64,000 nucleotides of DNA, from assembly GCF_003018255.1 (NCBI RefSeq), contig NZ_CP027440.1, one strand, 5' to 3'. This document shows positions 7,249-63,475 of this stretch, in pieces. Every line of letters begins with the position of its first letter. Positions within the stretch are counted from its first letter, which is position 1. A program made the position numbers and the translations under genes. The notes under the pieces are model-generated. The model saw only the letters and a list, made by a program, of their open reading frames with translations. It was not told the origin of the DNA and searched no databases. The stretch comes from Escherichia coli (lineage in GTDB: Bacteria; Pseudomonadota; Gammaproteobacteria; Enterobacterales; Enterobacteriaceae).

Positions 7249-7769
7249 ATTCCTCTCCCCTCATAGGCGACGAATAGCATTTTGTGTTGAGGATCACAAA
7301 ACGAATAATTGCTGGTCGCCGCGATAAGGTCAGACGAAGACAACAAGGGGGATTCTCACTGTGCTTTACATCAGCGTAGGCCATAGAATGTTGCTTCGTT
7401 GACTGTAATGCCGGGTAAATGAGCATTTTTTGATAGTGCGAAAGAACCCTGCGAGGAAAATAAGCATCTATTATTGTTTGTCATGATGACAAGGCAGGCA
7501 TCAATGAAAGGCTTCCCAATTGCACATATTTTTCACCCTTCAATCCCGCCAATGCACGCAGTGGTTAACAATCACAACAGAAATATTGATTATTGGACGG
7601 TAAAAATTTAGGTTATAACGCCCAAATGATTCAACGATCGGACAATACCTGCGAACTTACAATTAATGAGAGAAATATATGTATAATTACGACCTTTTAA
7701 ATGCAATATAGACTTAATAACTTCTTACAAAGTCTATTATTAATACCGTAGATATTCATCTTACCCTGG

Positions 7770-7813: not shown

Positions 7814-8190
<377 letters not shown>

Positions 8191-8197
8191 GGCGCGC

Positions 8198-8226
8198 AGT
8201 ATAGAGGGTTTGCGCGCCCTTGTCAC
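8198..8226 (-). promoter_or_regulatory. rnpB sigma70 promoter
   Basis: Minus strand reads GTGACA - 17 nt - TATACT - 7 nt - G(+1); the -35 hexamer (8221..8226) overlaps the garK stop codon (8223..8225). Confidence 0.75.
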
Positions 8227-9368
8227 CCCGCGTTGCGCATTCCAATCGCCAGTGTCGCGGCGATATTACGTGAAGCACGGCAGATATTGTCATAAGCTCC
8301 GCGGAATGCTTCGTCTAACGTACCAATGCTGGTCAATACGCTGAAGACCGCATCAATGCCATGCTGATGTACAACGCCAACATCATTGGTCAGGCTACCC
8401 GCAATGCCAATCACCGGTTTATGGTACTTTTTCGCCACGTTTGCGACGCCAATCGGAACCTTGCCGTGAATACTCTGGCTGTCAATACGCCCTTCACCGG
8501 TGATCACCAGCGTACAATCGTGAATATGTTCCTCCAGATTCAGCGCCGTAGTGACGATTTCAATACCACTTTTCAGTTCTGCACCAAGAAACGCCATCAG
8601 CGCCGCGCCCATACCACCCGCAGCTCCTGCGCCGGGGACATCTTTCACATCAACATGCAGCGCTTTTTTAATGACATCGGCATAGTGAGAGAGGTTATTG
8701 TCCAGCTCGACAATCATCGCTTCACTGGCTCCCTTTTGTGGGCCAAAGATGCGCGATGCGCCGTTATCGCCCACCAGCGGATTGGTGACATCACAAGCGA
8801 CGCGAATGACGCAATCTTTTAAGCGCGGATCGAGGCCGGAAATATCAATATCATTCAGAGTATTAAGACTACCGCCGCCAAAACCAATTTCATTGCCGTT
8901 GGCGTCGCATAATTTCGCCCCCAGCGCCTGTACCATGCCTGCGCCGCCATCATTTGTAGCGCTGCCGCCAATGCCGATAATAATGTTTGTTGCACCGCTC
9001 TCCAGCGCCTGCAGGATTAACTCGCCTGTGCCGCGTGAAGTGGTCACGAGTGGATCGCGTTTTTCCGCAGGTACCAGCTCCAGCCCACTGGCCGCCGCCA
9101 TTTCAATAAATGCGGTTTTGCCATCGCCGGAGATCCCCCAACTGGCATCCACTTTCTCGCCCAGCGGCCCTGTAACCCAGGCGTGACGTTCAGAACCCTG
9201 GGTAGCTGCAATCATCGCTTCCACCGTTCCTTCGCCACCATCGGCAACCGGAACAGAAACGTACTGTGCATCAGGAAAAATTTCCCGAAATCCTTTTTCT
9301 ATCGCCTGCGCAACCTCGCTGGCAGATAAACTTTCTTTATAAGAGTCTGGGGCGATTACGATTTTCAT
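8223..9368 (-). CDS. garK: glycerate 2-kinase
   Basis: ORF track 8223..9449; N-terminus MKIVIAPDSYKESLSASEVAQAIE (glycerate kinase family); start trimmed to the ATG at 9368. Confidence 0.9.
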   Translation of the reverse strand: MKIVIAPDSYKESLSASEVAQAIEKGFREIFPDAQYVSVPVADGGEGTVEAMIAATQGSERHAWVTGPLGEKVDASWGISGDGKTAFIEMAAASGLELVPAEKRDPLVTTSRGTGELILQALESGATNIIIGIGGSATNDGGAGMVQALGAKLCDANGNEIGFGGGSLNTLNDIDISGLDPRLKDCVIRVACDVTNPLVGDNGASRIFGPQKGASEAMIVELDNNLSHYADVIKKALHVDVKDVPGAGAAGGMGAALMAFLGAELKSGIEIVTTALNLEEHIHDCTLVITGEGRIDSQSIHGKVPIGVANVAKKYHKPVIGIAGSLTNDVGVVHQHGIDAVFSVLTSIGTLDEAFRGAYDNICRASRNIAATLAIGMRNAG

Positions 9369-9464
9369 ACCTATGCCTGTTACCACATGACGCCGGAGGG
9401 CGTTTCTCTTATTCGGCCTGGATTCCAGGCCCGGATTGCAATACGCCATCCGGGCACGACGTCA

Positions 9465-10349
9465 TTAACGAGTAACTTCGACTTTCGCCAGTTTTTCGTA
9501 GTAGCACGCCAGGGCGCTATGATCTGCCGTTCCTAAACCATCTGCTCGCAGTGCCTGCATCATCTCCATAACCGCAGCTGTGAGCGGCAGTTGCGCACCG
9601 ACGCCGTGGGAAGTATCCAGCGCATTTGCCAGATCCTTAATATGCAGATCAATACGGAAGCCCGGCTTGAAGTTGCGGTCCATCACCATCGGCGCTTTGG
9701 CATCCAGCACGGTACTGCCCGCCAGTCCACCGCGAATTGCCTGATACACCAAATCCGGGTTAACGCCCGCTTTGGTTGCCAGCGTTAACGCTTCTGACAT
9801 CGCGGCAATATTCAGCGCCACAATGACCTGATTCGCCAGTTTGGTAACGTTACCTGCACCAATTTCCCCGGTATGCACCACGGAACCCGCCATCGCTTTC
9901 ATCAAATCATAGTATTTGTCGAAAATAGCCTTGTCGCCGCCCACCATCACTGACAGCGTACCGTCGATGGCTTTCGGTTCACCGCCGCTCACCGGAGCAT
10001 CCAGCATATCAATGCCTTTCGCTTTCAGAGCTTCGCTGATTTCACGGCTTGCCAGCGGTGCAATAGAACTCATATCGATCAATACCGTACCTGGCTTCGC
10101 GCCTTCAATAATGCCATTCTCACCCAGCGCCACCTCTTTCACATGAGGGGAGTTTGGCAGCATGGTTATGATGACGTCACACTGTTCAGCGATCGCTTTA
10201 GCCGTAGAAGCTGTTTCTGCACCTGCAGCAATCACTTCAGCAATAGCTTCTGGGTTACGGTCAGCAACCACCAGCGAGTAACCTGCTTTCAGAAGGTTTT
10301 TACTCATTGGTTTACCCATAATCCCCAGGCCAATAAAACCAACTTTCAT
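9465..10349 (-). CDS. garR: tartronate semialdehyde reductase (2-hydroxy-3-oxopropionate reductase)
   Basis: N-terminus MKVGFIGLGIMGKPMSKNL with a Rossmann GxGxxG motif; gar operon position. Confidence 0.9.
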   Translation of the reverse strand: MKVGFIGLGIMGKPMSKNLLKAGYSLVVADRNPEAIAEVIAAGAETASTAKAIAEQCDVIITMLPNSPHVKEVALGENGIIEGAKPGTVLIDMSSIAPLASREISEALKAKGIDMLDAPVSGGEPKAIDGTLSVMVGGDKAIFDKYYDLMKAMAGSVVHTGEIGAGNVTKLANQVIVALNIAAMSEALTLATKAGVNPDLVYQAIRGGLAGSTVLDAKAPMVMDRNFKPGFRIDLHIKDLANALDTSHGVGAQLPLTAAVMEMMQALRADGLGTADHSALACYYEKLAKVEVTR

Positions 10350-10384
10350 AGTCATATCAATCATCTCTCTTGTTGCGGTGGTGG

Positions 10385-11155
10385 TTATTTTTTAAAGGTA
10401 TCAGCCAGTTTCTGAGTGGCAGAGCGGAAGACGCCGAGATCGCTGCCGACAGCCACAAACGTCGCGCCCCATTCCAGATAACGACGCGCATCGGCTTCGA
10501 CCGGCGCGAGGATACCGCTGGGTTTGCCGTGCGCGCTGGCACGGTTAAAAATGTGCTGAATTGCTTTTTGTACATCCGGGTGTGAGGCATTGCCGAGATG
10601 GCCTAATGCCGCAGCCAGATCGCTGGGGCCGACGAAGATACCGTCTACACCTTCGGTAGCGGCAATGGCATCGACGTTATCTACGCCCTGCTGACTTTCT
10701 ATCTGGACCAGAATAGTGATGTTCTTGTTCGACTGAGCGAAATAATCCGCCACGGTGCCAAACATATTGGCGCGGTGAGAAACGGAGACGCCGCGAATGC
10801 CTTCCGGCGGGTAACGAGTTGATGCCACCGCCTGCTCTGCTTCCTCTTTTGTTTCTACAAAAGGAATCAGGAAGTTATAGAAACCGATATCCAGAAGACG
10901 CTTAATAATTACCGGCTCGTTGGTCGGCACTCGCACTACTGGCGCGCTGGCGCTGCCTTTCAGGGCCATTAACTGCGGAATAAACGTGGAGATATCGTTT
11001 GGCGCATGTTCGCCATCCAGCACCAGCCAGTCAAACCCAGCCAAACCAAGAACTTCAGTGCTAATCGGGTTAGAGAGTGCTGACCAGCAACCAATTTGTA
11101 CCTGTTTCGCAGCCAGTGCGGCTTTGAATTTATTCGGGAAAACATCGTTATTCAT
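10385..11155 (-). CDS. garL: 5-keto-4-deoxy-D-glucarate aldolase
   Basis: 256-aa HpcH/HpaI-family aldolase ORF between garR and garP. Confidence 0.9.
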
Positions 11156-11170
11156 CGCTTATACCTTTGC

Positions 11171-12505
11171 TTATTTCTGCAATTCCATACGTTTAATGTC
11201 GCCAACTACGAAGAGGTAGCAGACCATCGCCATCAGCGCTGAACATCCCACGAAAACCAGTGCTGCATTGAAGGAGTGCAATTCACTTACCAGGTAGCCA
11301 ATCACCAGTGGAGTGACAATGGAGGCAACATTGCCAAAGACGTTAAAGACGCCGCCGCAGAGACCAACAATCTCTTTCGGCGCGGTGTCAGAAATCACTG
11401 GCCAGCCCAGCGCACCAAATCCTTTGCCAAAGAAAGCCAGCGCCATCAGCATGACCACCAGCGTGGTGTTGTTGGTGTAGTTACATAAGATGATGGTGGA
11501 AGCCAGCAACATTCCCAGCACAATCGGTAGCTTACGTGCCAGGGTCAGGGACAAACCGCGTTTGATCAGATAATCCGAGAAGACACCTCCCAGCACGCCG
11601 CCCGCAAAGCCACACAGTGCCGGAATCGAGGCGACCAGACCCACTTTCAGAATCGACATGCCTTTTTCCTGCACCAGATAAATTGGGAACCAAGTGAGGA
11701 AGAACCAGGTAATGGTGTTGATAAAATATTGTCCGAAAAATACGCCCAGCATCATGCGGTTAGAGAGCAATTGCTTGATGTAATGCAGTTTGGGACCACT
11801 TGCTGCCACACTGCCCGGCTTTTTGTGGTCCATATCGACCACCGCGCCATTTTCTGAGATAAACTTCAGCTCTTCCGCAGACATACGTGGGTGATCTGTC
11901 GGGTTATGAATCAACTTGATCCACAGCGCCGTCAGCACAAAACCAATTACCCCCATAACGGTAAAGACGTGCTCCCAGCCCCAGGCGAAAGTCAGCCAGC
12001 CAAGCAGCGGCGAAAAGAGCGCCAACGAGAAATATTGCGCCGAGTTAAAGATGGCGGAGGCAGTACCACGTTCTTTCGTCGGGAACCAGGCGGCGACAAT
12101 ACGGGCGTTCGCCGGGAATGATGGCGCTTCCGAGAACCCCAGCATAAAGCGCATAAAGAACATGGAGATCCCAGCCCAGGCCAGCGGAAACATATCGACA
12201 AAGCCTTGCAGGAAGGTGAACAGCGACCAGAAAAAGAGGCTGTAAGTGTAAACTTTCTTCGAGCCAAACTTATCAAGCAGCCAGCCGCCGGGAATTTGCA
12301 TCAGCAAGTAGGCCCAGCCAAAAGCAGAGAAGATGTAACCCATCGAAACCGCACTTAACTGCAACTCTTTTGCCACTTCGGTACCAGCAATAGACAGCGT
12401 TGCACGATCGGCGTAGTTAACGGCGGTAACAATAAAAATAATCAGTAATATTAAATAGCGGGTATGCACGCCTTTCTTTTTTTCGTCAACGGTGTCCAGC
12501 ATCAT
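11171..12505 (-). CDS. garP: galactarate/glucarate MFS transporter
   Basis: 444-aa 12-TM-like ORF with MFS character; first gene of garPLRK. Confidence 0.9.
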   Translation of the reverse strand: MMLDTVDEKKKGVHTRYLILLIIFIVTAVNYADRATLSIAGTEVAKELQLSAVSMGYIFSAFGWAYLLMQIPGGWLLDKFGSKKVYTYSLFFWSLFTFLQGFVDMFPLAWAGISMFFMRFMLGFSEAPSFPANARIVAAWFPTKERGTASAIFNSAQYFSLALFSPLLGWLTFAWGWEHVFTVMGVIGFVLTALWIKLIHNPTDHPRMSAEELKFISENGAVVDMDHKKPGSVAASGPKLHYIKQLLSNRMMLGVFFGQYFINTITWFFLTWFPIYLVQEKGMSILKVGLVASIPALCGFAGGVLGGVFSDYLIKRGLSLTLARKLPIVLGMLLASTIILCNYTNNTTLVVMLMALAFFGKGFGALGWPVISDTAPKEIVGLCGGVFNVFGNVASIVTPLVIGYLVSELHSFNAALVFVGCSALMAMVCYLFVVGDIKRMELQK

Positions 12506-12879
12506 TTTATTTACCTCGGGTACTTATGCTGATTTTTATTATTATGGGGAAGGTGTTATTTATGAGTTTCATTTATGCCGTTACGACAATGAACTCGGGA
12601 ATTAGTATAAGCAGCGCGAGAATAATAATCATTGTGCAAATGCTAATTTAATTAATACTATTTAAATATTATTTTGAGCATATGCACATAAGGTTGCGCG
12701 CTAAAGCACAGATTTGCGCTTTACCTTGCCGGGAGGTACTGCAATCCCTGAAATGATTGACATTGATCACATTTCTGCATTTAAACTCCTGACATTCTTA
12801 TTTCACCCAATGAAGTTATTTATTTTTAAATGAGACCAGGTCCTCATTTTAATAGTCCCTGGCTGGAGAATATTGCACA
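12506..12879. promoter_or_regulatory. garP/garD divergent promoter region (CdaR-activated in K-12)
   Basis: 374-bp AT-rich spacer between divergent garP and garD; sites not individually resolved. Confidence 0.5.
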
Positions 12880-14451
12880 ATGGCCAACATCAAAATCAGA
12901 CAAGAAACGCCAACTGCGTTTTATATAAAAGTTCACGACACAGATAATGTGGCAATTATTGTTAATGATAATGGCCTGAAAGCAGGAACGCGTTTTCCGG
13001 ATGGGCTGGAATTAATTGAACATATTCCCCAGGGGCATAAAGTCGCATTGCTGGACATTCCGGCTAATGGTGAAATTATTCGTTATGGCGAGGTGATTGG
13101 TTACGCCGTGCGCGCAATCCCACGCGGAAGCTGGATCGACGAATCAATGGTTGTACTACCGGAAGCGCCGCCGTTACATACGCTGCCACTGGCAACCAAA
13201 GTCCCGGAACCCTTACCGCCGCTGGAAGGATACACCTTTGAGGGCTATCGCAATGCCGATGGCAGCGTGGGCACCAAAAACCTGCTCGGCATCACCACCA
13301 GCGTCCACTGTGTGGCAGGCGTGGTGGACTACGTAGTAAAAATCATTGAACGCGATCTGCTACCGAAATACCCGAACGTCGATGGCGTGGTGGGGCTGAA
13401 TCATTTGTACGGTTGTGGCGTGGCGATTAACGCACCCGCGGCAGTTGTACCTATTCGTACCATTCACAATATTTCGCTGAACCCTAACTTTGGCGGCGAA
13501 GTAATGGTGATTGGTCTGGGTTGTGAAAAGTTGCAGCCTGAACGCCTACTGACTGGAACGGATGATGTGCAAGCTATTCCAGTAGAAAGCGCCAGCATTG
13601 TCAGTTTGCAGGATGAAAAGCATGTCGGTTTTCAGTCCATGGTCGAGGATATTTTGCAGGTCGCCGAATGCCATCTACAAAAACTGAATCAACGTCAGCG
13701 AGAAACCTGTCCGGCTTCAGAACTGGTTGTCGGCATGCAGTGCGGTGGCAGCGATGCGTTTTCTGGCGTAACGGCAAACCCGGCGGTTGGGTATGCGTCT
13801 GATCTATTGGTGCGCTGCGGCGCAACGGTGATGTTTTCAGAAGTCACAGAAGTGCGTGACGCGATACATCTGCTGACACCACGCGCAGTGAACGAAGAGG
13901 TCGGCAAACGGCTGCTGGAGGAGATGGAGTGGTACGATAATTATCTCAATATGGGAAAAACCGATCGCAGCGCCAACCCTTCGCCGGGGAACAAGAAAGG
14001 CGGTCTGGCAAATGTGGTGGAGAAGGCACTCGGCTCCATTGCTAAATCGGGTAAAAGTGCAATTGTTGAAGTGCTGTCGCCCGGCCAACGCCCGACTAAA
14101 CGCGGATTAATTTACGCCGCGACGCCAGCCAGCGATTTTGTCTGTGGCACGCAACAGGTGGCTTCGGGTATCACCGTGCAAGTGTTTACGACCGGTCGTG
14201 GTACGCCGTACGGCCTGATGGCGGTACCCGTCATTAAAATGGCGACCCGCACCGAGCTGGCGAACCGCTGGTTTGATTTAATGGATATTAACGCGGGCAC
14301 TATCGCTACCGGCGAAGAAACCATTGAAGAAGTGGGCTGGAAGTTGTTTCACTTTATTCTCGACGTCGCCAGCGGGAAGAAGAAAACTTTCTCGGATCAA
14401 TGGGGACTGCATAACCAGCTGGCGGTGTTTAACCCGGCACCGGTGACCTGA
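12880..14451 (+). CDS. garD: galactarate dehydratase
   Basis: 523-aa [30 protein letters not shown]; altronate-dehydratase-like family. Confidence 0.92.
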
Positions 14452-14473
14452 TTTCTTTTGGAACGTCCCTCGC

Positions 14474-14505
14474 AAAACATGGCCTTAGTGCCATGTTTTT
14501 ATTGT
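14474..14505 (+). terminator. rho-independent terminator after garD
   Basis: aacatggc-cttagt-gccatgtt hairpin followed by TTTTTATTGTTT. Confidence 0.7.
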
Positions 14506-14599
14506 TTAAAGTCCACACATCCATTAATAATGCATTTGCATTACCTTAGTTCAAGCTTATAATTTGAGCAGAAAACAGGCTGTAAAAGGACAGTAAATA

Positions 14600-14935
14600 A
14601 TGCCCGCTAATGCTCGCTCTAACGCTGTACTGACCACTGAATCAAAGGTCACTATACGCGGACAAACAACTATCCCCGCGCCAGTGCGTGAGGCCTTAAA
14701 ACTGAAGCCTGGCCTGGACAGCATTCATTACGAAATTCTGCCTGGTGGGCAAGTATTTATGTGCCGACTGGGAGATGAACAGGAGGATCATACTATGAAT
14801 GCATTTTTGCGTTTTCTGGATGCAGATATCCAGAACAACCCGCAAAAAACTCGTCCATTCGACATTCAACAAGGAAAGAAACTTGTCGCTGGCATGGACG
14901 TCAACATTGACGATGAGATTGGCGACGACGAATAA
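14600..14935 (+). CDS. prlF: type II antitoxin (AbrB/SpoVT-type swapped-hairpin DNA binding)
   Basis: 111-aa ORF with an acidic C-terminus (DDEIGDDE); stop overlaps the yhaV start (TAATG). Confidence 0.88.
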   Translation: MPANARSNAVLTTESKVTIRGQTTIPAPVREALKLKPGLDSIHYEILPGGQVFMCRLGDEQEDHTMNAFLRFLDADIQNNPQKTRPFDIQQGKKLVAGMDVNIDDEIGDDE

Positions 14936-15399
14936 TGGATTTTCCACAAAGGGTTAATGGTTGGGCGCTATATGCTCATCCCTGTTTTCAGGAAACCTAC
15001 GATGCTTTAGTTGCCGAAGTCGAGGCATTAAAGGGAAAAGATCCTGAAAATTATCAGAGAAAAGCTGCCACAAAGTTATTGGCGGTGGTCCATAAAGTGA
15101 TTGAGGAGCATATCACGGTCAATCCATCATCACCGGCATTCCGTCATGGCAAGTCGTTAGGCTCTGGGAAAAATAAAGACTGGTCACTGGTAAAATTTGG
15201 CGCTGGTCGCTATCGTCTCTTCTTTCGTTACAGTGAAAAAGAGAAAGTCATCATTCTGGGATGGATGAACGATGAAAACACGCTGCGCACCTACGGTAAA
15301 AAAACAGATGCCTATACCGTATTCAGTAAAATGTTAAAAAGAGGACATCCTCCTGCCGACTGGGAAAGCCTCACCCAAGAGACAGAAGAAAACCATTGA
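14935..15399 (+). CDS. yhaV: type II toxin, RelE/ParE-superfamily ribonuclease
   Basis: 154-aa ORF translationally coupled to prlF; K-12 synteny between garD and agaR. Confidence 0.88.
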   Translation: MDFPQRVNGWALYAHPCFQETYDALVAEVEALKGKDPENYQRKAATKLLAVVHKVIEEHITVNPSSPAFRHGKSLGSGKNKDWSLVKFGAGRYRLFFRYSEKEKVIILGWMNDENTLRTYGKKTDAYTVFSKMLKRGHPPADWESLTQETEENH

Positions 15400-15453
15400 T
15401 GGTGTTCACAATGCCCGCCGAACGCATTGGTGTTGACCAGCGGGCATCCTTTC

Positions 15454-16263
15454 TCATTCCCCGACCAGAATCACTTCAACCCCAGCCTTTCTCAGTCCTT
15501 CCAGACTATCCGCAGGAATGCCTTCATCAACAATGATCATGTCGATACGTTGAGTATCAATGATCTTATGTAAACTAGAACGATTGAACTTACTGGAATC
15601 GGTGACCACGATGATCCGTTCCGCAACTTCGCACATCCGACGGTTTAAACGGGCTTCATCTTCATTATGCGTGCTGACGCCACGCTCCAGATCAATAGCA
15701 TCTACACCAAGAAACAGCATATCGAAGTGGTAATTTTGCAGCGATTGCTCAGCCTGATCGCCATAAAAAGATTGTGACTGACGGCGCAAATGCCCGCCGG
15801 TCATCAGCAGCTCAACACCTTCCGCTTCCAGCAACGCATTAGCCACGTTCATACCGTTGGTCATCGCAATTACGTCGGTGTGCTTGCGCATCAGACGAGC
15901 AATCTCAAAAGTGGTAGTCCCGGAATCGAGGATTACCCGATGACCTGGCTGAATCAACTCAACGGCAGCTTTCGCAACGCTGCGTTTCATTGCGGTGTTC
16001 AGCGCGCTTTTATCTTCCACTGATGGCTCGACTGACGGCGTCGTGCTATCGCAGATCAACGCGCCGCCATAGGCACGCACAGCGATCCCCTGCTTTTCCA
16101 GAAACGCCAGATCGTTGCGGATCGTCACAGTAGATACACCATACAACGCCGATAGATCATTAACTTGCACACTTCCTTGCTGGCGCAGGCGTTGAATGAT
16201 CTGCTCTCGTCGCTCACTGGTGCCTGTCACTCGCTTCTCGCCTGAAGCGTCGGTATTACTCAT
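15454..16263 (-). CDS. agaR: DeoR-family repressor of the aga regulon
   Basis: 269-aa ORF with an N-terminal HTH ([35 protein letters not shown]) and a DeoR C-terminal sugar-phosphate domain. Confidence 0.92.
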
Positions 16264-16511
16264 AGTAAGTCCTTTCGTAAAACTTTCGTTTCATTTCGTT
16301 TTGCCTATTAACGCCTTTCTATTAAGCAAATGCAAGCCCACCTTACCCATTGGCGCAAGCTACTCTCGTTTCAGTGGCTTTCATTATGTTTCTTTTGTGA
16401 ATCAGATCAGAAAACTATTATCTTTCGTTTTATTTTTATCTCACCATGACGCAGTATCAACTGAAACAAAACGAAAGATTAATATCGCAGTAATCTGAAC
16501 TGGAGAGGAAA
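16264..16511. promoter_or_regulatory. agaR/kbaZ divergent promoters with AgaR operator repeats
   Basis: Repeated CTTTCGTTT / AAACGAAAG motifs at about 16271..16310, 16422..16436 and 16465..16478. Confidence 0.7.
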
Positions 16512-17792
16512 GTGAAACATCTGACAGAAATGGTGAGACAGCACAAAGCGGGCAAAACAAATGGGATTTATGCCGTTTGTTCCGCACATCCGCTGGTGCT
16601 GGAAGCTGCAATCCGCTACGCCAGTGCAAACCAAACGCCGTTACTGATTGAAGCAACCTCCAATCAGGTGGACCAGTTCGGCGGTTATACCGGAATGACA
16701 CCCGCCGATTTTCGCGGCTTTGTTTGTCAGCTAGCCGACTCGTTGAATTTCCCGCAGGATGCGCTGATTCTGGGTGGCGACCATCTGGGGCCAAACCGCT
16801 GGCAAAACCTGCCTGCCGCTCAGGCAATGGCCAATGCCGATGATTTGATTAAAAGCTACGTGGCGGCAGGATTCAAAAAAATTCACCTTGATTGCAGCAT
16901 GTCCTGTCAGGACGATCCGATTCCCTTAACTGATGATATCGTGGCTGAACGCGCCGCCCGTCTGGCGAAAGTGGCGGAAGAAACCTGCCGTGAACATTTT
17001 GGCGAGGCCGATCTGGTGTATGTCATTGGCACCGAAGTTCCGGTGCCTGGCGGCGCGCATGAAACCTTAAGCGAGCTGGCGGTCACCACACCGGATGCCG
17101 CCCGCGCCACACTGGAAGCCCATCGCCACGCCTTTGAAAAGCAGGGCCTGAATGCCATCTGGCCACGCATTATTGCCCTGGTGGTTCAACCCGGCGTCGA
17201 ATTCGATCACACCAACGTTATTGATTATCAGCCCGCCAAAGCGACCGCCTTAAGCCAGATGGTCGAAAACTACGAAACGCTGATTTTCGAAGCGCACTCT
17301 ACCGATTACCAAACACCGCAATCGCTGCGCCAGCTGGTGATTGACCACTTTGCCATTCTGAAAGTTGGCCCGGCGCTGACCTTTGCCCTGCGTGAAGCTC
17401 TGTTCTCTCTGGCGGCGATTGAAGAAGAACTGGTACCAGCAAAAGCCTGTTCTGGTCTGCGTCAGGTGCTGGAAAACGTGATGCTCGACCGCCCGGAATA
17501 CTGGCAAAGCCACTACCACGGTGACGGCAACGCGCGTCGTCTGGCGCGTGGTTACAGCTACTCGGACCGCGTGCGCTATTACTGGCCAGACAGCCAGATT
17601 GATGACGCTTTCGCTCATCTGGTTCGTAATCTGGCGGATTCACCAATTCCGCTGCCGCTGATCAGCCAGTATCTGCCGCTGCAGTACGTGAAAGTTCGCT
17701 CCGGCGAGCTGCAGCCAACGCTACGGGAACTCATTATCAACCATATTCAGGACATCCTGGCGCAGTACCACACAGCCTGTGAAGGCCAATAA
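16512..17792 (+). CDS. kbaZ: tagatose-bisphosphate aldolase non-catalytic subunit
   Basis: 426-aa [26 protein letters not shown]; GTG start at 16512 preceded by GGAGAGG. Confidence 0.92.
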
Positions 17793-17814
17793 GCAAAACA
17801 AAGAGGAACACGCT

Positions 17815-18288
17815 ATGCCAAATATTGTTTTAAGCCGGATTGATGAACGCTTGATTCACGGTCAGGTTGGCGTTCAGTGGGTCGGATTTGCGGGGGCAAA
17901 TCTGGTGCTGGTAGCCAACGATGAGGTTGCCGAAGATCCGGTACAACAAAACCTGATGGAAATGGTACTGGCAGAAGGGATCGCCGTACGTTTCTGGACG
18001 CTGCAAAAAGTTATCGACAACATTCATCGCGCCGCCGATCGACAGAAAATCCTGCTGGTTTGTAAAACACCTGCCGATTTCCTGACGCTGGTGAAAGGTG
18101 GCGTTCCGGTGAATCGCATTAACGTTGGCAATATGCACTACGCCAATGGCAAGCAACAAATCGCCAAAACGGTTTCTGTAGATGCGGGCGATATCGCAGC
18201 ATTTAACGACCTGAAAGCCGCTGGAGTGGAATGCTTCGTTCAGGGCGTCCCGACAGAGCCTGCTGTGGACCTCTTTAAATTACTTTGA
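17815..18288 (+). CDS. agaV: PTS N-acetylgalactosamine-specific EIIB
   Basis: N-terminus MPNIVLSRIDERLIHGQVG (mannose-family IIB); ATG at 17815. Confidence 0.9.
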   Translation: MPNIVLSRIDERLIHGQVGVQWVGFAGANLVLVANDEVAEDPVQQNLMEMVLAEGIAVRFWTLQKVIDNIHRAADRQKILLVCKTPADFLTLVKGGVPVNRINVGNMHYANGKQQIAKTVSVDAGDIAAFNDLKAAGVECFVQGVPTEPAVDLFKLL

Positions 18289-18298
18289 GGGATTCATC

Positions 18299-19078
18299 AT
18301 GGAAATCAGTCTGTTGCAGGCATTCGCGTTGGGCATTATCGCCTTTATCGCTGGCCTGGATATGTTTAACGGCCTAACCCATATGCACCGCCCGGTGGTC
18401 CTCGGCCCGTTGGTCGGGCTGGTACTTGGCGATCTGCATACCGGTATTTTAACCGGCGGTACGCTGGAACTGGTGTGGATGGGGCTGGCCCCGCTGGCGG
18501 GCGCACAGCCGCCTAACGTGATTATCGGTACTATCGTCGGCACGGCGTTTGCCATTACTACTGGCGTGAAACCCGATGTTGCAGTCGGTGTCGCCGTACC
18601 TTTCGCTGTCGCAGTACAGATGGGGATTACCTTCCTGTTCTCGGTGATGTCTGGCGTAATGTCCCGCTGTGACCGGATGGCAGAGAACGCCGATACACGC
18701 GGCATTGAACGCGTGAACTATCTGGCACTGCTGGCACTCGGCACTTTCTATTTTCTCTGCGCTTTCCTGCCTATCTACTTCGGCGCGGAACATGCAAAAA
18801 CCATCATTGATGTCCTACCGCAACGATTAATCGACGGCCTCGGCGTCGCGGGCGGCATCATGCCAGCAATCGGTTTTGCCGTGCTGCTGAAAATCATGAT
18901 GAAAAACGTCTACATCCCCTACTTCATCCTGGGCTTTGTTGCCGCAGCCTGGCTCAAGTTACCGGTGCTGGCTATTGCTGCCGCCGCGCTGGCGATGGCG
19001 CTGATCGACCTGCTGCGTAAATCTCCTGAACCGACTCAACCTGCGGCACAGAAAGAGGAATTTGAAGATGGCATCTAA
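18299..19078 (+). CDS. agaW: PTS N-acetylgalactosamine-specific EIIC (full length)
   Basis: 259-aa membrane ORF, uninterrupted; mannose-family IIC; overlaps agaE by 17 nt. Confidence 0.85.
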   Translation: MEISLLQAFALGIIAFIAGLDMFNGLTHMHRPVVLGPLVGLVLGDLHTGILTGGTLELVWMGLAPLAGAQPPNVIIGTIVGTAFAITTGVKPDVAVGVAVPFAVAVQMGITFLFSVMSGVMSRCDRMAENADTRGIERVNYLALLALGTFYFLCAFLPIYFGAEHAKTIIDVLPQRLIDGLGVAGGIMPAIGFAVLLKIMMKNVYIPYFILGFVAAAWLKLPVLAIAAAALAMALIDLLRKSPEPTQPAAQKEEFEDGI

Positions 19079-19946
19079 TCAAACCACCCTGCCGAACGTC
19101 AGTGAAAACGAAGAAACACTGCTGACAGGCGTCAATGAAAACGTGTATGAAGATCAGAGCATTGGCGCAGAGCTGACGAAAAAAGATATCAACCGCGTCG
19201 CCTGGCGTTCCATGCTGTTACAAGCGTCTTTTAACTACGAACGTATGCAGGCTTCTGGCTGGTTGTACGGTCTGCTGCCTGCTCTGAAAAAGATCCACAC
19301 TAATAAACGCGACCTGGCGCGCGCCATGAAGGGGCATATGGGTTTCTTCAATACCCATCCGTTTCTGGTGACGTTTGTTATCGGCATTATCCTTGCGATG
19401 GAGCGTTCTAAGCAGGACGTTAACAGTATTCAGAGCACCAAAATTGCCGTCGGTGCGCCGCTCGGCGGGATTGGCGATGCGATGTTCTGGCTAACGCTAC
19501 TGCCGATTTGTGGCGGGATAGGCGCAAGCCTCGCGCTACAAGGCTCTATTCTTGGCGCAGTCGTCTTTATTGTGCTGTTCAACGTGGTACACCTGGGGCT
19601 GCGTTTTGGTCTGGCGCATTATGCTTACCGCATGGGCGTGGCGGCGATTCCACTCATTAAAGCGAATACCAAAAAAGTCGGCCATGCTGCGTCAATCGTT
19701 GGGATGACGGTAATCGGCGCGCTGGTGGCAACCTATGTTCGTTTAAGCACCACGCTGGAAATCACCGCTGGCGACGCAGTGGTTAAGTTACAGGCTGATG
19801 TTATCGACAAACTGATGCCAGCCTTCTTACCGCTGGTCTACACCCTGACCATGTTCTGGCTGGTACGCCGCGGCTGGAGTCCGCTGCGCCTGATTGCAGT
19901 GACCGTGGTTCTCGGCATCGTCGGTAAATTCTGCCATTTCCTTTAA
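19062..19946 (+). CDS. agaE: PTS N-acetylgalactosamine-specific EIID
   Basis: 294-aa membrane ORF following agaW; mannose-family IID. Confidence 0.85.
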   Translation: MKMASNQTTLPNVSENEETLLTGVNENVYEDQSIGAELTKKDINRVAWRSMLLQASFNYERMQASGWLYGLLPALKKIHTNKRDLARAMKGHMGFFNTHPFLVTFVIGIILAMERSKQDVNSIQSTKIAVGAPLGGIGDAMFWLTLLPICGGIGASLALQGSILGAVVFIVLFNVVHLGLRFGLAHYAYRMGVAAIPLIKANTKKVGHAASIVGMTVIGALVATYVRLSTTLEITAGDAVVKLQADVIDKLMPAFLPLVYTLTMFWLVRRGWSPLRLIAVTVVLGIVGKFCHFL

Positions 19947-19963
19947 ATACAATGAGGTATTAG

Positions 19964-20398
19964 ATGTTAAGTATTATTTTGACAGGGCATGGCGGGTTTG
20001 CCAGTGGCATGGAAAAAGCAATGAAGCAAATCCTCGGCGAGCAATCGCAGTTTATTGCCATCGATTTTCCGGAAACCTCAAGCACCGCGCTGCTTACATC
20101 GCAGCTTGAAGAGGCCATCGCCCAACTGGATTGTGAAGACGGCATTGTTTTTCTGACGGATTTGCTGGGCGGCACGCCGTTTCGCGTAGCTTCAACGCTG
20201 GCGATGCAAAAACTGGGCTGTGAAGTGATTACCGGCACCAATTTGCAACTGCTACTGGAGATGGTGCTGGAGCGCGAAGGGTTAAGCGGTGAAGAGTTTC
20301 GTGTGCAGGCGCTGGAGTGTGGACATCGTGGGCTGACCAGTCTGGTGGACGAGTTAGGCCGCTGCCATGAGGAATGTCCGGTCGAGGAAGGAATATGA
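19964..20398 (+). CDS. agaF: PTS EIIA (mannose family), shared by the Aga and Gam systems
   Basis: 144-aa ORF MLSIILTGHGGFASGMEKA; stop overlaps the agaA start (ATGA). Confidence 0.85.
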   Translation: MLSIILTGHGGFASGMEKAMKQILGEQSQFIAIDFPETSSTALLTSQLEEAIAQLDCEDGIVFLTDLLGGTPFRVASTLAMQKLGCEVITGTNLQLLLEMVLEREGLSGEEFRVQALECGHRGLTSLVDELGRCHEECPVEEGI

Positions 20399-21528
20399 CA
20401 CCCGTTTTGCGCGCCAGAAGGCTGCTGACTGAAGAGGGATGGCTCGATGACCATCAGTTGCGTATTGCTGACGGTGTAATCGCAGAAATCGAACCGATTC
20501 CAGTGGGCGTGACTGAACGCGATGCGGAACTGCTCTGCCCCGCTTACATCGACACCCATGTACACGGTGGTGCGGGCGTTGATGTAATGGATGACGCGCT
20601 GGATGTGCTCGACAAGCTGGCAATGCACAAAGCACGCGAAGGTGTCGGCAGTTGGTTACCGACCACCGTAACCGCGCCGCTTAATACCATTCATGCGGCG
20701 CTGGAACGTATTGCTCAACGTTGCCAACGCGGCGGACCTGGTGCACAAATACTGGGGAGTTATCTCGAAGGACCGTACTTCACGCCGCAGAATAAAGGCG
20801 CGCATCCGCCGGAGCTGTTTCGCGAGCTGGAAATTGCCGAGCTGGATCAATTGATTGCCGTTTCTCAGCACACCTTGCGCGTGGTGGCGCTGGCACCGGA
20901 AAAAGAAGGGGCATTGCAGGCCATCCGCCATCTTAAACAGCAAAACGTAAGGGTGATGCTGGGGCATAGCGCGGCGACCTGGCAACAAACCCGCGCCGCG
21001 TTTGATGCTGGTGCCGACGGCCTGGTGCATTGCTATAACGGGATGACAGGTTTACATCACCGCGAACCGGGAATGGTTGGCGCGGGATTAACGGACAAGC
21101 GCGCCTGGCTGGAACTGATAGCCGATGGTCATCATGTGCATCCGGCGGCGATGTCGCTGTGTTGTTGCTGTGCGAAAGAGAGAATCGTGCTGATCACCGA
21201 CGCGATGCAGGCAGCCGGGATGCCGGATGGTCGCTATACGTTATGTGGCGAAGAAGTGCAGATGCACGGTGGCGTTGTCCGTACCGCGTCCGGTGGGCTG
21301 GCGGGCAGTACGCTGTCTGTTGATGCGGCAGTGCGCAACATGGTTGAGTTGGCGGGTGTAACGCCTGCGGAAGCCATCCATATGGCATCGCTGCATCCGG
21401 CGCGTATGCTGGGTGTTGATGATGTTCTGGGATCGCTTAAACCGGGCAAACGCGCCAGCGTCGTTGCGCTGGATAGCGGGCTGCATGTGCAACAAATCTG
21501 GATTCAGGGTCAATTAGCTTCGTTTTGA
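20395..21528 (+). CDS. agaA: N-acetylgalactosamine-6-phosphate deacetylase (full length)
   Basis: ORF track 20374..21528; ATG at 20395 gives about 377 aa (MTPVLRARRLLTEEGW...); NagA-like amidohydrolase. Confidence 0.85.
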   Translation: MTPVLRARRLLTEEGWLDDHQLRIADGVIAEIEPIPVGVTERDAELLCPAYIDTHVHGGAGVDVMDDALDVLDKLAMHKAREGVGSWLPTTVTAPLNTIHAALERIAQRCQRGGPGAQILGSYLEGPYFTPQNKGAHPPELFRELEIAELDQLIAVSQHTLRVVALAPEKEGALQAIRHLKQQNVRVMLGHSAATWQQTRAAFDAGADGLVHCYNGMTGLHHREPGMVGAGLTDKRAWLELIADGHHVHPAAMSLCCCCAKERIVLITDAMQAAGMPDGRYTLCGEEVQMHGGVVRTASGGLAGSTLSVDAAVRNMVELAGVTPAEAIHMASLHPARMLGVDDVLGSLKPGKRASVVALDSGLHVQQIWIQGQLASF

Positions 21529-21539
21529 TGGTTTGCTCC

Positions 21540-21700
21540 TTTATTGGGCCTTCACTTCCCCCGTAAGGCCTTTCTTTTTCTTTCGTTTTGATCTGTGCAG
21601 CGGTGTCGGATGCGACGCTAATGCGCCTTATCCGACCTACGGTTGGTGACCGTAAGGCCGGATAAAGTATTTACGCCGCATCCAGCAATCCCTTTTACTT
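21540..21700. repeat. REP/BIME-type palindromic repeats
   Basis: Imperfect palindromes gcgccttatccgacctacg and ggccggataaag...gccgcatcc typical of E. coli REP units. Confidence 0.75.
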
Positions 21701-21877
21701 CCCTTGTCTTTTCTTTCAACGATCACAGATTTCGTTTTATTTCCTTTTTCTCCATTGAACTTTCAGTTTCTTTTCTATAGATTTTAACCAACGAAAGAAA
21801 TCACCAAGTGAAATGAAACGAAAGGCAAACGAAAGCGACAACGCCGACGTCAAGTTCATCAGACTAAGGATTGAGTT
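21700..21877 (+). promoter_or_regulatory. agaS promoter with AgaR operator repeats
   Basis: Four clusters of TTTCGTTT / AACGAAAG motifs (about 21729..21745, 21758..21775, 21790..21805, 21810..21836). Confidence 0.7.
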
Positions 21878-23032
21878 ATGCCAGAAAATTACACCCCTGC
21901 TGCTGCCGCAACCGATACATGGACTGAAGAAGAGATCCGCCATCAGCCTCGCGCATGGATCCGTTCACTCACCAACATCGACGCGCTACGTTCCGCGCTC
22001 AATAACTTCCTTGAACCGTTACTGCGCAAAGAGAATCTGCAAATCATCCTGACCGGAGCCGGAACCTCGGCATTTATCGGTGACATCATCGCGCCGTGGC
22101 TCGCCAGTCATACCGGTAAAAACTTCAGCGCCGTACCGACCACCGATCTGGTCACTAATCCGATGGACTACCTGAATCCAGCTCATCCGCTGCTGTTGAT
22201 CTCCTTCGGTCGATCCGGCAACAGCCCGGAAAGCGTCGCTGCCGTGGAACTGGCAAATCAATTTGTACCCGAGTGCTATCACCTGCCGATCACCTGCAAC
22301 GAAGCGGGCGCTCTTTACCAAAACGCGATCAACAGCGACAACGCGTTTGCCCTACTGATGCCCGCAGAAACGCACGACCGCGGCTTTGCGATGACCAGCA
22401 GCATTACCACCATGATGGCCAGTTGCCTCGCGGTTTTCGCACCTGAGACGATCAACAGCCAGAGCTTCCGCGACGTGGCGGATCGTTGCCAGGCGATCCT
22501 GACCTCACTGGGCGATTTCAGCGAAGGTGTGTTTGGTTACGCACCGTGGAAACGGATCGTTTATCTCGGCAGCGGTGGCTTACAGGGCGCAGCACGCGAG
22601 TCGGCGCTGAAAGTGCTGGAACTGACAGCGGGTAAACTGGCGGCCTTCTATGATTCCCCGACCGGATTCCGTCATGGCCCGAAATCGCTGGTCGATAACG
22701 AAACGCTGGTGGTGGTATTTGTCTCCAGCCACCCTTACACCCGTCAGTATGATCTTGATCTGCTGGCAGAACTCCGCCGCGATAACCAGGCAATGCGCGT
22801 AATCGCCATCGCCGCGGAAAGCAATGACGTTATTACTGCCGGTCCACATATCATCCTGCCGCCGTCCCGTCACTTTATCGACGTTGAGCAGGCATTTTGC
22901 TTCCTGATGTACGCCCAGACATTTGCACTGATGCAGTCGCTGCACATGGGTAATACACCGGATACCCCATCAGCCAGTGGCACCGTTAACCGCGTGGTGC
23001 AAGGCGTAATCATTCATCCGTGGCAGGCATAA
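21878..23032 (+). CDS. agaS: galactosamine-6-phosphate deaminase/isomerase (SIS domains)
   Basis: 384-aa ORF MPENYTPAAAATDTWTEEEIRHQPRAW. Confidence 0.92.
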   Translation: MPENYTPAAAATDTWTEEEIRHQPRAWIRSLTNIDALRSALNNFLEPLLRKENLQIILTGAGTSAFIGDIIAPWLASHTGKNFSAVPTTDLVTNPMDYLNPAHPLLLISFGRSGNSPESVAAVELANQFVPECYHLPITCNEAGALYQNAINSDNAFALLMPAETHDRGFAMTSSITTMMASCLAVFAPETINSQSFRDVADRCQAILTSLGDFSEGVFGYAPWKRIVYLGSGGLQGAARESALKVLELTAGKLAAFYDSPTGFRHGPKSLVDNETLVVVFVSSHPYTRQYDLDLLAELRRDNQAMRVIAIAAESNDVITAGPHIILPPSRHFIDVEQAFCFLMYAQTFALMQSLHMGNTPDTPSASGTVNRVVQGVIIHPWQA

Positions 23033-39088: not shown

Positions 39089-40333
39089 TTACTGATACAC
39101 CGGCAGCAAATTAAAGCTCGATAAAATATGCACCAGTGCGTTGCCGACGCCAAATACCAGAATCAGCGCAATCATCGGCTTGCCGCCCCAGACGCGGAAT
39201 TTCGGGCTGCCAAAGCGTTTACGCGATGCGCGGGCCAACAGCGCCGGTACAATTGCCGCCCAGATAGTAGCTGCTAAGCCAGCATAACCAATGGCATACA
39301 GGAATCCGTTCGGAAATAGCAGACCACCCACAACAGGCGGGGCAAAGGTCAGCAACGCCGTTTTAAAGCGGCCCAGGGCAGAGTCGTCAAAACCAAACAG
39401 ATCTGCCAGATAGTCAAACAAACCCAGCGTTACGCCGAGGAACGAACTTGCTACCGCAAAGTTTGAGAACACGACCAGCAGAAGGTCCAGGCTACGGCTG
39501 TTCAGCACGCCGCTTAATGCCTGTACCAGCACATCAATATTACCGCCCTTCTCGGCGATGCCGATAAACTCCGGACGAGGGATGTTGCCCATCGTCGCCA
39601 GCAACCAGATGGTATACAGCGCCAGCGCCATCAGCGTACCGTACACCAGGCATTTCACGATGGTTTTCGGATCTTTGCCGTAATACTTCATCAGGCTCGG
39701 CACGTTACCGTGATAACCAAACGATGCCAGACAGAATGGCAGCGTCATCAGCAGATACGGTGCATAAGACGCATTGCTTTCGGCGACGTTGAACAATGTC
39801 GCAGGCTGCACATGCCCCAGTAGGCTACCGAAGGTGAGGAAGAAGGTAATGACTTTCGCCCCCAGCACAATCGCCGTCATGCGGCTGACGGCTTTAGTGC
39901 TCAACCACACCACAAACGCCACCAGCAGTGCAAAACCAAAACCCGCTGCCCGTGCCGGGACGTTCAATGACATCTCTGCGAAGGTATGATGCAGAATCGA
40001 ACCGCTGGCAGAAATATAGGCATAGGTCAGGATATAGAGCACAAAGGCAATGGAAATGCCGTTGACCACGTTCCAGCCTTTGCCCAGCAAATCTTTGGTG
40101 ATGGTGTCAAAGCTCGAACCGATTCGGTAATTCAGGTTAGCTTCCAGAATCATCAAGCCGGAATGCAGCATACAGAACCAGGTAAAGATCAGCGCCGCCA
40201 TTGACCAGAAGAACCACGCCCCGGACATGACCACAGGCAGAGAAAACATCCCTGCGCCAATAATGGTGCCGCCGATAATCACCACGCCGCCAAGCAGCGA
40301 CGGTGACGTTTGGGTGGTGGTTAGTGTTGCCAT
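39089..40333 (-). CDS. mtr: tryptophan-specific permease
   Basis: 414-aa membrane [36 protein letters not shown]. Confidence 0.92.
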
Positions 40334-45684: not shown

Positions 45685-45930
45685 TGTAATATCCTTTCTC
45701 TTTCTTAGACAGTACCTTACGGCACTGGTGTTAATACCCGATCTTCTGCGCATCCTCGCGACTAATGACAACCCTAACCCAGCTCTATGTGGGTAAAGCC
45801 TCTCATTAGCCGCGCGAACCTCTGCAGCGGAAGATCATTCATAGCAACAATACATTAGTTTCCAGTGAATTGCTGCCGTCAGCTTGAAAAAAGGGGCCAC
45901 TCAGGCCCCCTTTTCTGAAACTCGCAAGAA
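45685..45930 (-). promoter_or_regulatory. pnp leader and rpsO terminator region
   Basis: GC-rich hairpin aaaaaaggggccactcaggccccctttt at 45887..45914 just 3' of rpsO, followed by a long structured pnp 5' UTR. Confidence 0.7.
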
Positions 45931-46296
<366 letters not shown>

Positions 46297-47694: not shown

Positions 47695-47772
47695 AATAAA
47701 TTCTCCTGACAAAAAAGGGGCTGTTAGCCCCTTTTTAAAATTAATTTCAGGTGGAAGGGCTGTTCACGTTGG

Positions 47773-47846
47773 CCTGATAAGACGCGCCAGCGTCGCATCA
47801 GGCAATCCATGCCGGATGCGGCGTAAACGCCTTATCCCGCATGGAA
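47773..47846. repeat. REP/BIME element
   Basis: ggcctgataagacgcgccagcgtcgcatcaggc ... gccggatgcggcgtaaacgccttatcc. Confidence 0.8.
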
Positions 47847-52522: not shown

Positions 52523-52582
52523 GCCCACCCCCAAGACATAAAAAAAGGGCCTAAAGCCCAGTTATTCTGTAGTCAGATAACA

Positions 52583-52608
52583 AAAAACCCCGATAAATCG
52601 GGGCTTTA
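52583..52608 (-). terminator. hairpin with U-run between metY and rimP (probable partial terminator/attenuator)
   Basis: Plus strand aaaaaaccccgataaatcggggcttt; on the minus strand a 6-bp GC stem followed by Ts. Confidence 0.55.
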
Positions 52609-52728
52609 TATAACTGAACCCTATAACCGCAACTGCGGTCTGGAGCACTTTCCAGAAGGATTTTTTCAAATCCCACTACGAAGGCCGAAGTCTTCACAGT
52701 ATATTTGAAAAAGGACTCTAAGGGAAAG

Positions 52729-52805
<77 letters not shown>

Positions 52806-56585: not shown

Positions 56586-56672
56586 TGGTACCGAGGACGG
56601 GACTTGAACCCGTAAGCCCTATTGGGCACTACCACCTCAAGGTAGCGTGTCTACCAATTCCACCACCTCGGC
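56586..56672 (-). tRNA. leuU: tRNA-Leu (GAG anticodon), 87 nt
   Basis: Reverse complement reads GCCGAGGTGGTGGAATTGGTAGACACGCTACCTTGAGGTGGTAGTGCCCAATAGGGCTTACGGGTTCAAGTCCCGTCCTCGGTACCA. Confidence 0.95.
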
Positions 56673-63229: not shown

Positions 63230-63475
63230 TTGTTATACCTCTTGAATATTCCTGATGGGGCAAGTCTTCACCCACCCCGGCTGTTCGGCCTGCCCGGCAT
63301 AACTCCTCACCGGGACCAGAAGCAAAAAAATACCGACCCGGGTACAAGTCCCAGGTCAGCTACAATTCACATTTTGATAGTCATTTTACCCTGAAGTTCC
63401 CGAAGGGTCATCGTTTACTTTATAGGGCGTTGCGCCGTAGTATGACGGCTCGATTCCAGGTTGTTAGCGCGAGAT

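Follow-up and report, generated by a model that had tools for sequence, protein, structure and literature searches.

In the window, the 64,000-nucleotide stretch of Escherichia coli DNA analyzed here, the interval between garD and agaR is occupied by two small genes, prlF and yhaV. They form a known chromosomal type II toxin–antitoxin operon, ordinary in kind and standing in its usual garD–agaR site, and the PrlF–YhaV system itself has been characterized since 2007. The toxin of this copy carries a leucine at residue 85 where all compared homologs bearing that residue have an arginine (R85L), a change overlooked in an initial annotation made by reading the sequence. Below, we describe the locus and its relatives and then lay emphasis on what this replacement may do to the toxin.

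The prlF–yhaV operon at the garD–agaR site

The region examined spans window positions 14452–15460 (1009 nt) and was searched against 5426 complete E. coli genomes. Its upstream boundary follows the end of garD at 14451, after which come a perfect 10-bp hairpin and a run of T residues. The terminator scan recognized this element as an intrinsic-terminator-like hairpin of garD on the plus strand (14474–14509), whose arms AAAACATGGC (14474–14483) and GCCATGTTTT (14490–14499) form a perfect 10-nt inverted repeat around a 6-nt loop, with a T-rich tail. A Shine–Dalgarno-like AAGGA read from the sequence (14586–14590, plus strand) is located 9 nt 5′ of the prlF start. In the list of open reading frames (ORFs) and in the sequence, prlF begins with ATG and runs from 14600 to 14935 on the plus strand, encoding 111 aa with the C-terminus NIDDEIGDDE, whereas yhaV, also starting with ATG, runs from 14935 to 15399 on the same strand and encodes 154 aa. 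One base is common to the prlF stop TAA (14933–14935) and the yhaV ATG (14935–14937), and the resulting TAATG (14933–14937, plus strand) would couple the translation of yhaV to that of prlF. On the other side, agaR (15454–16263, minus strand) is convergent, with 54 nt between its stop and the stop of yhaV. The layout given in the initial annotation, namely an acidic-tailed antitoxin, a TAATG overlap, a terminator after garD, and a convergent agaR, was thereby recovered in full. Between the two convergent genes, RNA folding also brought out a GC-rich hairpin, ATGCCCGC ... GCGGGCAT (15411–15447), with a folding energy of −21.1 kcal/mol and a non-significant z-score of −0.8. The terminator scan called no terminator there, and the hairpin may, on this weak support, act as a bidirectional terminator shared by yhaV and agaR. 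No RNA family was found by an Rfam search of 14.4–15.5 kb.

Both products were assigned to their own families by profile searches. The prlF product matched the Pfam family PrlF_antitoxin (PF15937) at 4.1e-41 and 139.6 bits (cut-off 32) and the NCBIfam PrlF equivalog NF007429 at 7.5e-50 and 167.6 bits (cut-off 125). The yhaV product matched Toxin_YhaV (Pfam: PF11663) at 1.3e-52 and 177.9 bits (cut-off 35), over 137 of 138 profile positions; in NCBIfam, no model matched YhaV. The 1009-nt region was found in 5167 of the 5426 complete genomes, where it is annotated as prlF/yhaV/agaR. Among the same genomes, 259 had no match to the locus, one had four places, and one place lay on a plasmid.

The initial annotation had called the pair a known K-12 system. 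This stands as regards the system, which occupies in K-12 the same slot garD–prlF–yhaV–agaR (PrlF, also SohA, b3129; YhaV, b3130), with the same lengths of 111 and 154 aa, the same TAATG, the same promoter palindrome TAATGCATTTGCATTA, and matches to the same curated families. It does not extend to the sequence, since 27 of the 1009 nt differ and the aga cluster of the window (agaW, agaE, agaF, and agaA/nagA; approximately 18300–21530) is intact, as in strain 200164, whereas agaW and agaA are pseudogenes in K-12; the window is therefore not K-12 DNA. From K-12 to the window, PrlF exhibits the changes H8N, Q39L, and N88D, and YhaV the changes T31A, R85L, T145S, R148Q, and T153N. The PrlF changes are common to WP_001296435.1 and those of YhaV, R85L excepted, to the widespread (common) allele WP_000347251.1, so that by sequence comparison R85L is the sole unusual change.

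The cassette in distant loci, its probable operator and its antitoxin

We compared the operon with nine loci encoding YhaV homologs of 51–66% identity, from Salmonella, Yersinia, Kosakonia, Erwinia, an Enterobacter metagenome-assembled genome, Paracoccus, Neokomagataea, and two metagenomic contigs. In all nine, a PrlF_antitoxin gene of 108–115 aa is located directly upstream of the yhaV homolog, and the junction is either an overlap of 1–4 nt or a gap no longer than 7 nt. Because this pairing is kept in 9/9 loci while the surrounding genes differ in every one, the pair behaves in these comparisons as a mobile two-gene cassette. Two of the neighborhoods belong to prophages: in Salmonella enterica (L005, 1–2462) the pair adjoins Phage_pRha and ANT antirepressor genes, and in Yersinia mollaretii (L006, 193–3243) it is flanked by a lysis cassette (holin/lysozyme/spanin) on one side and by a KilA-N gene on the other. 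Additionally, ORF14a of a Vibrio phage O395 fragment is a YhaV homolog with 44% identity.

Upstream of prlF, a consensus scan placed its best promoter-like site on the plus strand at 14535–14563, with a −35 hexamer TTTGCA (14535–14540), a 17-nt spacer, and a −10 hexamer TATAAT (14558–14563), matching the consensus at 10 of 12 positions. A TATAAT at a similar distance is conserved in the enterobacterial loci, and we infer a sigma-70-like promoter role for this site. The −35 hexamer is overlapped by the 16-bp palindrome TAATGCA-TT-TGCATTA (14528–14543), which occurs once in the window against an expectation of 0.02. When the 143 nt upstream of prlF were aligned between the window and the nine distant loci (L005–L013), the palindrome was found at the same place in all ten. 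Its enterobacterial form is (G)TAATGCA(NN)TGCATTA(C), while the three alphaproteobacterial-type loci (Paracoccus, Neokomagataea, and L012) bear arms resembling GTAAGAAT/ATTCCTTAC, in the form GTAAG(G)AAT/ATTCCTTAC, both arms co-varying. Such co-variation is what the operator of a protein binding as a dimer should show, and the changes in the arms suggest co-evolution with the DNA-binding domain of PrlF. According to a review (PMC7781912, citing Schmidt 2007), a PrlF2–YhaV4 complex binds a palindrome in the prlF promoter, with which the palindrome in the window agrees. Positions 14528–14543 are thus likely to be the operator of PrlF, or of PrlF together with YhaV.

The predicted antitoxin and autorepressor PrlF would comprise an N-terminal AbrB/SpoVT-type domain, a C-terminal toxin-binding part, and the acidic tail. 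The window protein, identical to WP_001296435.1 of strain 104, falls by itself just below the AbrB/SpoVT cut-offs (PF04014, 17.5 vs. 24.7 bits; TIGR01439, 26.4 vs. 28.3 bits). A family profile built from ten PrlF proteins of distant loci, in comparison with the PDB, matched SpoVT (2w1t, 1.2e-4) and AbrB-family structures (5itj, 5itm, and 2l66, approximately 5e-4), the alignment with the SpoVT/AbrB N-domains covering residues 12–57 approximately. PF04014 was likewise matched by seven of the ten family members, with a best E-value of 1.4e-8. From these profile matches, the assignment of the N-terminal domain of PrlF to the AbrB/SpoVT type is judged to hold, and the check proposed in the initial annotation for this protein thus bore out its own family directly and the AbrB/SpoVT domain through the family profile. 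A plain sequence search of the PDB with PrlF returned no true relative among the solved structures. The predicted domain likens PrlF to the swapped-hairpin antitoxins of the MazE/AbrB/SpoVT kind, as does the palindromic form of the operator, which is what a dimeric binder would call for; PrlF differs from them in that its partner toxin has a RelE fold and not a MazF fold.

The fold of YhaV and the replacement of Arg85

The YhaV sequence by itself gives little connection to solved structures. A PDB sequence search returned no true relative, its match to ThreeFoil (5e-5) being spurious, as two copies of this designed repeat matched one 30-residue stretch; a PDB profile search with the YhaV family gave no RelE match, and the fragments of Zuotin, PPR, and channel proteins that appeared in it were chance matches. 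We therefore turn to the AlphaFold2 model obtained from 38 homologs, with a mean predicted local distance difference test score (pLDDT) of 85 and a predicted template modeling score (pTM) of 0.80. Its elements run in the order β1 (10–14), α1 (16–35), α2 (44–60), β2 (84–88), β3 (93–100), and β4 (105–111), followed by C-terminal helices, and this βααβββ core is superposable on RelE, YoeB, and ParE. Foldseek searches of the PDB with the model retrieved PfiT, RelE1 of Mycobacterium tuberculosis, E. coli RelE, HigB2, ParE, and YoeB, with probabilities of up to 1.00. Membership of YhaV (14935–15399) in the RelE/ParE (BECR-fold) toxins, which the initial annotation had proposed, is thus supported by the predicted structure, whereas sequence profiles by themselves do not support it. 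The family search suggested there also came out as expected, with the match of YhaV to Toxin_YhaV. Compared with RelE of the E. coli RelBE system, YhaV has 60 additional residues, its helices are longer, and further helices extend its C-terminus; the identity is only 8–16%, without a significant connection between sequence profiles, and the antitoxin RelB is a ribbon-helix-helix protein, whereas PrlF is AbrB-type. The YhaV family keeps an invariant basic cluster of R85, K87, R94, and R118 plus Y127, as in RelE. In the literature, YhaV is classed among the ribosome-dependent mRNA endonucleases of the RelE family (PMC8546651, PMC11980606, PMC7781912) and shares one clade with RelE and HigB; its cleavage shows a codon-position bias and favors sites with a G immediately 3′ of the cleavage point (PMC8546651; PMC11980606). 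The K-12 toxin expressed alone arrests growth, which PrlF rescues (PMC8546651).

Over the 1009 nt, the closest genome is that of strain 104, and the sole difference is a T in the window instead of a G at 15188, which gives codon 85 of yhaV (15187–15189, plus strand) the sequence CTG (Leu) in place of the CGG (Arg) found elsewhere. In an alignment spanning 49–99% identity, residue 85 is Arg in 37/37 other sequences. Among representatives of 50% clusters, with identities of 34–56%, the 68 with a residue at this position all carry Arg, the single exception in this second alignment lacking the whole strand. The total thus amounts to Arg in 105/105 other homologs of 34–99% identity. All remaining family-invariant residues are present in the window protein, Arg85 being the one not found. 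Against a family hidden Markov model (HMM) from which the E. coli sequence had been left out, R85L cost 6.3 bits, exactly as much as R94L or R118L, as opposed to 0.3–2.6 bits for a leucine placed at variable sites.

In the model, residue 85 is situated on β2 beside Lys87, which is nearly invariant, and β3 carries the invariant Arg94. Aligning the YhaV family by hhalign with RelE, represented first by one sequence and later by a profile of 26, produced only the β3–β4 segment, at a probability of approximately 1% and in the expected register, in which Y93-R94-L95 of YhaV correspond to Y60-R61-L62 of RelE. Since the β2–β3 hairpin has four residues in both the YhaV model and RelE, extending this register without gaps would place K87 on RelE K54 and, probably, R85 on RelE K52. 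In RelE, K52 and R81 take part in acid–base catalysis, and K54 and R61 in transition-state stabilization (PMC4652777; PMC12620021).

The working of the operon that we propose combines results of this analysis (the anatomy of the genes, their families, the fold, the conservation of the operator, the rarity of Leu85, and the invariance of Arg85 in the family) with what the literature gives on the stoichiometry of the complex, the dependence on the ribosome, and the preferred site of cleavage; the equivalence to RelE K52 and the loss of activity are our own deductions. PrlF dimers would use their N-terminal domain of the AbrB/SpoVT type to bind the palindrome overlapping the sigma-70 promoter, and YhaV would act as co-repressor in the reported PrlF2–YhaV4 complex, so that the operon would repress itself. 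With prlF translated first and yhaV by coupling through TAATG, the antitoxin would be kept in excess. Once PrlF is lost, free YhaV would enter the ribosomal A site and cut mRNA, preferentially before G, and growth would stop. In the present allele, the invariant Arg85 on β2, probably at the position of RelE Lys52 and neighbored by Lys87 (the presumed Lys54) and Arg94 (the presumed Arg61), is replaced by Leu, which would weaken or abolish the cleavage of RNA but spare folding, the binding of PrlF, and co-repression, and would leave a partly disarmed module.

How far this reading can be carried depends, as a preliminary point, on whether the allele is real. Using a 55-mer centered on 15188, such that every 28-nt megablast seed includes that base, the T version was found in 0/5426 complete genomes, and the G version, serving as positive control, in 5001/5426. 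A change of one base only, carried by no complete RefSeq genome, could reflect a sequencing or assembly error hiding a true Arg85. The exact Leu85 protein (P0002), however, occurs on 59 public contigs from NCBI, JGI, ENA, and Logan, under several accession numbers and with entries in 87 index blocks, whereas its Arg85 twin occurs on at least 1000 contigs; the independent draft assembly GCA_032429015.1 also matches the window without any difference across 6465 nt, base 15188 included. Because independent assemblies carry the same base, an error can be set aside as having next to no probability, and the Leu85 allele is real despite its absence from complete genomes. The main alternative to a weakened toxin is a canonical, fully active PrlF–YhaV pair, in which R85L would be a neutral or near-neutral polymorphism of this lineage and the toxin would behave like the K-12 protein. 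Several observations weigh in its favor and against attenuation. In RelE, the K52A mutant was not significantly impaired in an end-point assay (PMC2807027). The corresponding residue of M. tuberculosis RelE1 is a Ser by nature, and S58A left the toxicity of that protein unchanged (PMC12620021); loss of the side chain at residue 85 might therefore be tolerated. As the sequence-profile link between YhaV and RelE is not significant alone, given the hhalign probability and the lack of a PDB profile match described above, the K52 equivalence leans on fold similarity and the ungapped extension, and R85 could instead serve ribosome or PrlF binding. Moreover, the allele persists in many isolates, and PrlF and the promoter are intact and unchanged in this lineage, so that nothing in them points to a relaxation of selection on the pair. 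Against neutrality stand the invariance of Arg85 across all the other homologs, an HMM penalty equal to that for Arg94, the equivalent of RelE R61, the complete abolition of the charge by Leu, and the absence of the allele from every complete genome searched. We thus regard full activity as possible yet doubtful, and real attenuation of the Leu85 toxin as somewhat favored, at even chances or slightly better. In its stronger form, a disarmed YhaV would have lost mRNA cleavage but kept PrlF binding and co-repression, so that the operon would be a PrlF circuit without a working toxin, or else the specificity of cleavage would have been retuned; we consider such a state evenly balanced. Chemostat cultures of E. 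coli have selected loss-of-function mutations of yhaV again and again (PMC5960147), which makes a natural attenuated allele plausible.

Two further readings concern the module as such. With ParE toxins among the best structural matches, YhaV could be thought a gyrase poison of the ParE type and not an RNase, which would fit the fold; yet this is contradicted by the published cleavage data and by the RelE-like retention in the family of R85, K87, R94, R118, and Y127, and we hold it to be very improbable. The operon could also be mainly an anti-phage module acting by abortive infection, a view that gains from the homologous pairs inside the Salmonella and Yersinia prophages and from the homolog encoded by the Vibrio phage fragment. 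Weighing against it, PADLOC-DB 2.0 contained no model matching PrlF or YhaV at E ≤ 0.01, a literature search found no experimental report, and in E. coli the pair occupies a fixed position in the core genome, flanked by metabolic operons, rather than a defense island; we judge this role unlikely. Where the initial annotation spoke of the only defense- or addiction-type module in the window, its uniqueness stands in that no other toxin–antitoxin pair or defense gene was seen in the colinear annotated genomes, whereas the term defense is unsupported. The best explanation overall, which we consider highly probable, is the known chromosomal and autoregulated prlF–yhaV operon, with a toxin that R85L has probably weakened.

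The surrounding window and the meaning of the Leu85 allele

Judging by the colinear annotated genomes, the window holds core genes only, from the tdc and gar operons via aga, rsmI, lpoA, pnp, and infB to ftsH, greA, and dacB. Over the 14 kb of positions 8000–22000, the best match to any complete RefSeq genome reaches at most 99.6%, the identity to strains 200164, MDR_56, and APEC O2-211. Positions 39500–64000 are 99.8% identical to JNE23-011. Because the best-matching complete genomes differ between the left and right parts, the comparison suggests a mosaic lineage not represented among complete RefSeq genomes. Rfam searches located the RNase P RNA (rnpB, 7814–8190, minus strand), the SraG small RNA (45743–45914, plus strand), the S15 leader (46144–46258, minus strand), naRNA4 (47771–47841, minus strand), the rimP leader (52540–52640, minus strand), the greA leader (63325–63446, minus strand), and two tRNAs, tRNA-Met (52729–52805) and tRNA-Leu (56586–56672). 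In the tdcR–rnpB interval, placed at 7504–7670 by colinearity with L004 (17005–17171), the closest annotated genome has only two tiny pseudogene fragments. In K-12 this interval presumably holds genes of the yhaB/yhaC type, which appear to be missing or decayed in that genome.

Among the E. coli YhaV entries, many are short (98–130 aa) and fall in clusters of 20–200 members (among P0047, P0048, P0081, P0082, P0032, and P0046), and a few of approximately 200 aa bear both the PrlF and the YhaV Pfam domains; these may be contig-edge fragments, real truncations, or read-through fusions.

The value of R85L is modest and lies in its being a natural point change at a family-invariant residue of a toxin that has no solved structure. 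The literature searched yielded no mutational map of the YhaV active site, and a search for YhaV R85 gave coincidental matches only. One practical consequence concerns the toxicity assay, since with R85L in this allele the toxin expressed alone could fail to be toxic, and such a result could wrongly refute a family annotation that is correct. For the family, the allele bears on whether YhaV needs the position that would match RelE K52. For E. coli, it bears on whether chromosomal toxin–antitoxin pairs decay in the wild by inactivation of the toxin first, as laboratory evolution suggests, and, if the toxin is indeed disarmed, it would be the naturally occurring equivalent of the yhaV loss-of-function mutations favored in chemostats.
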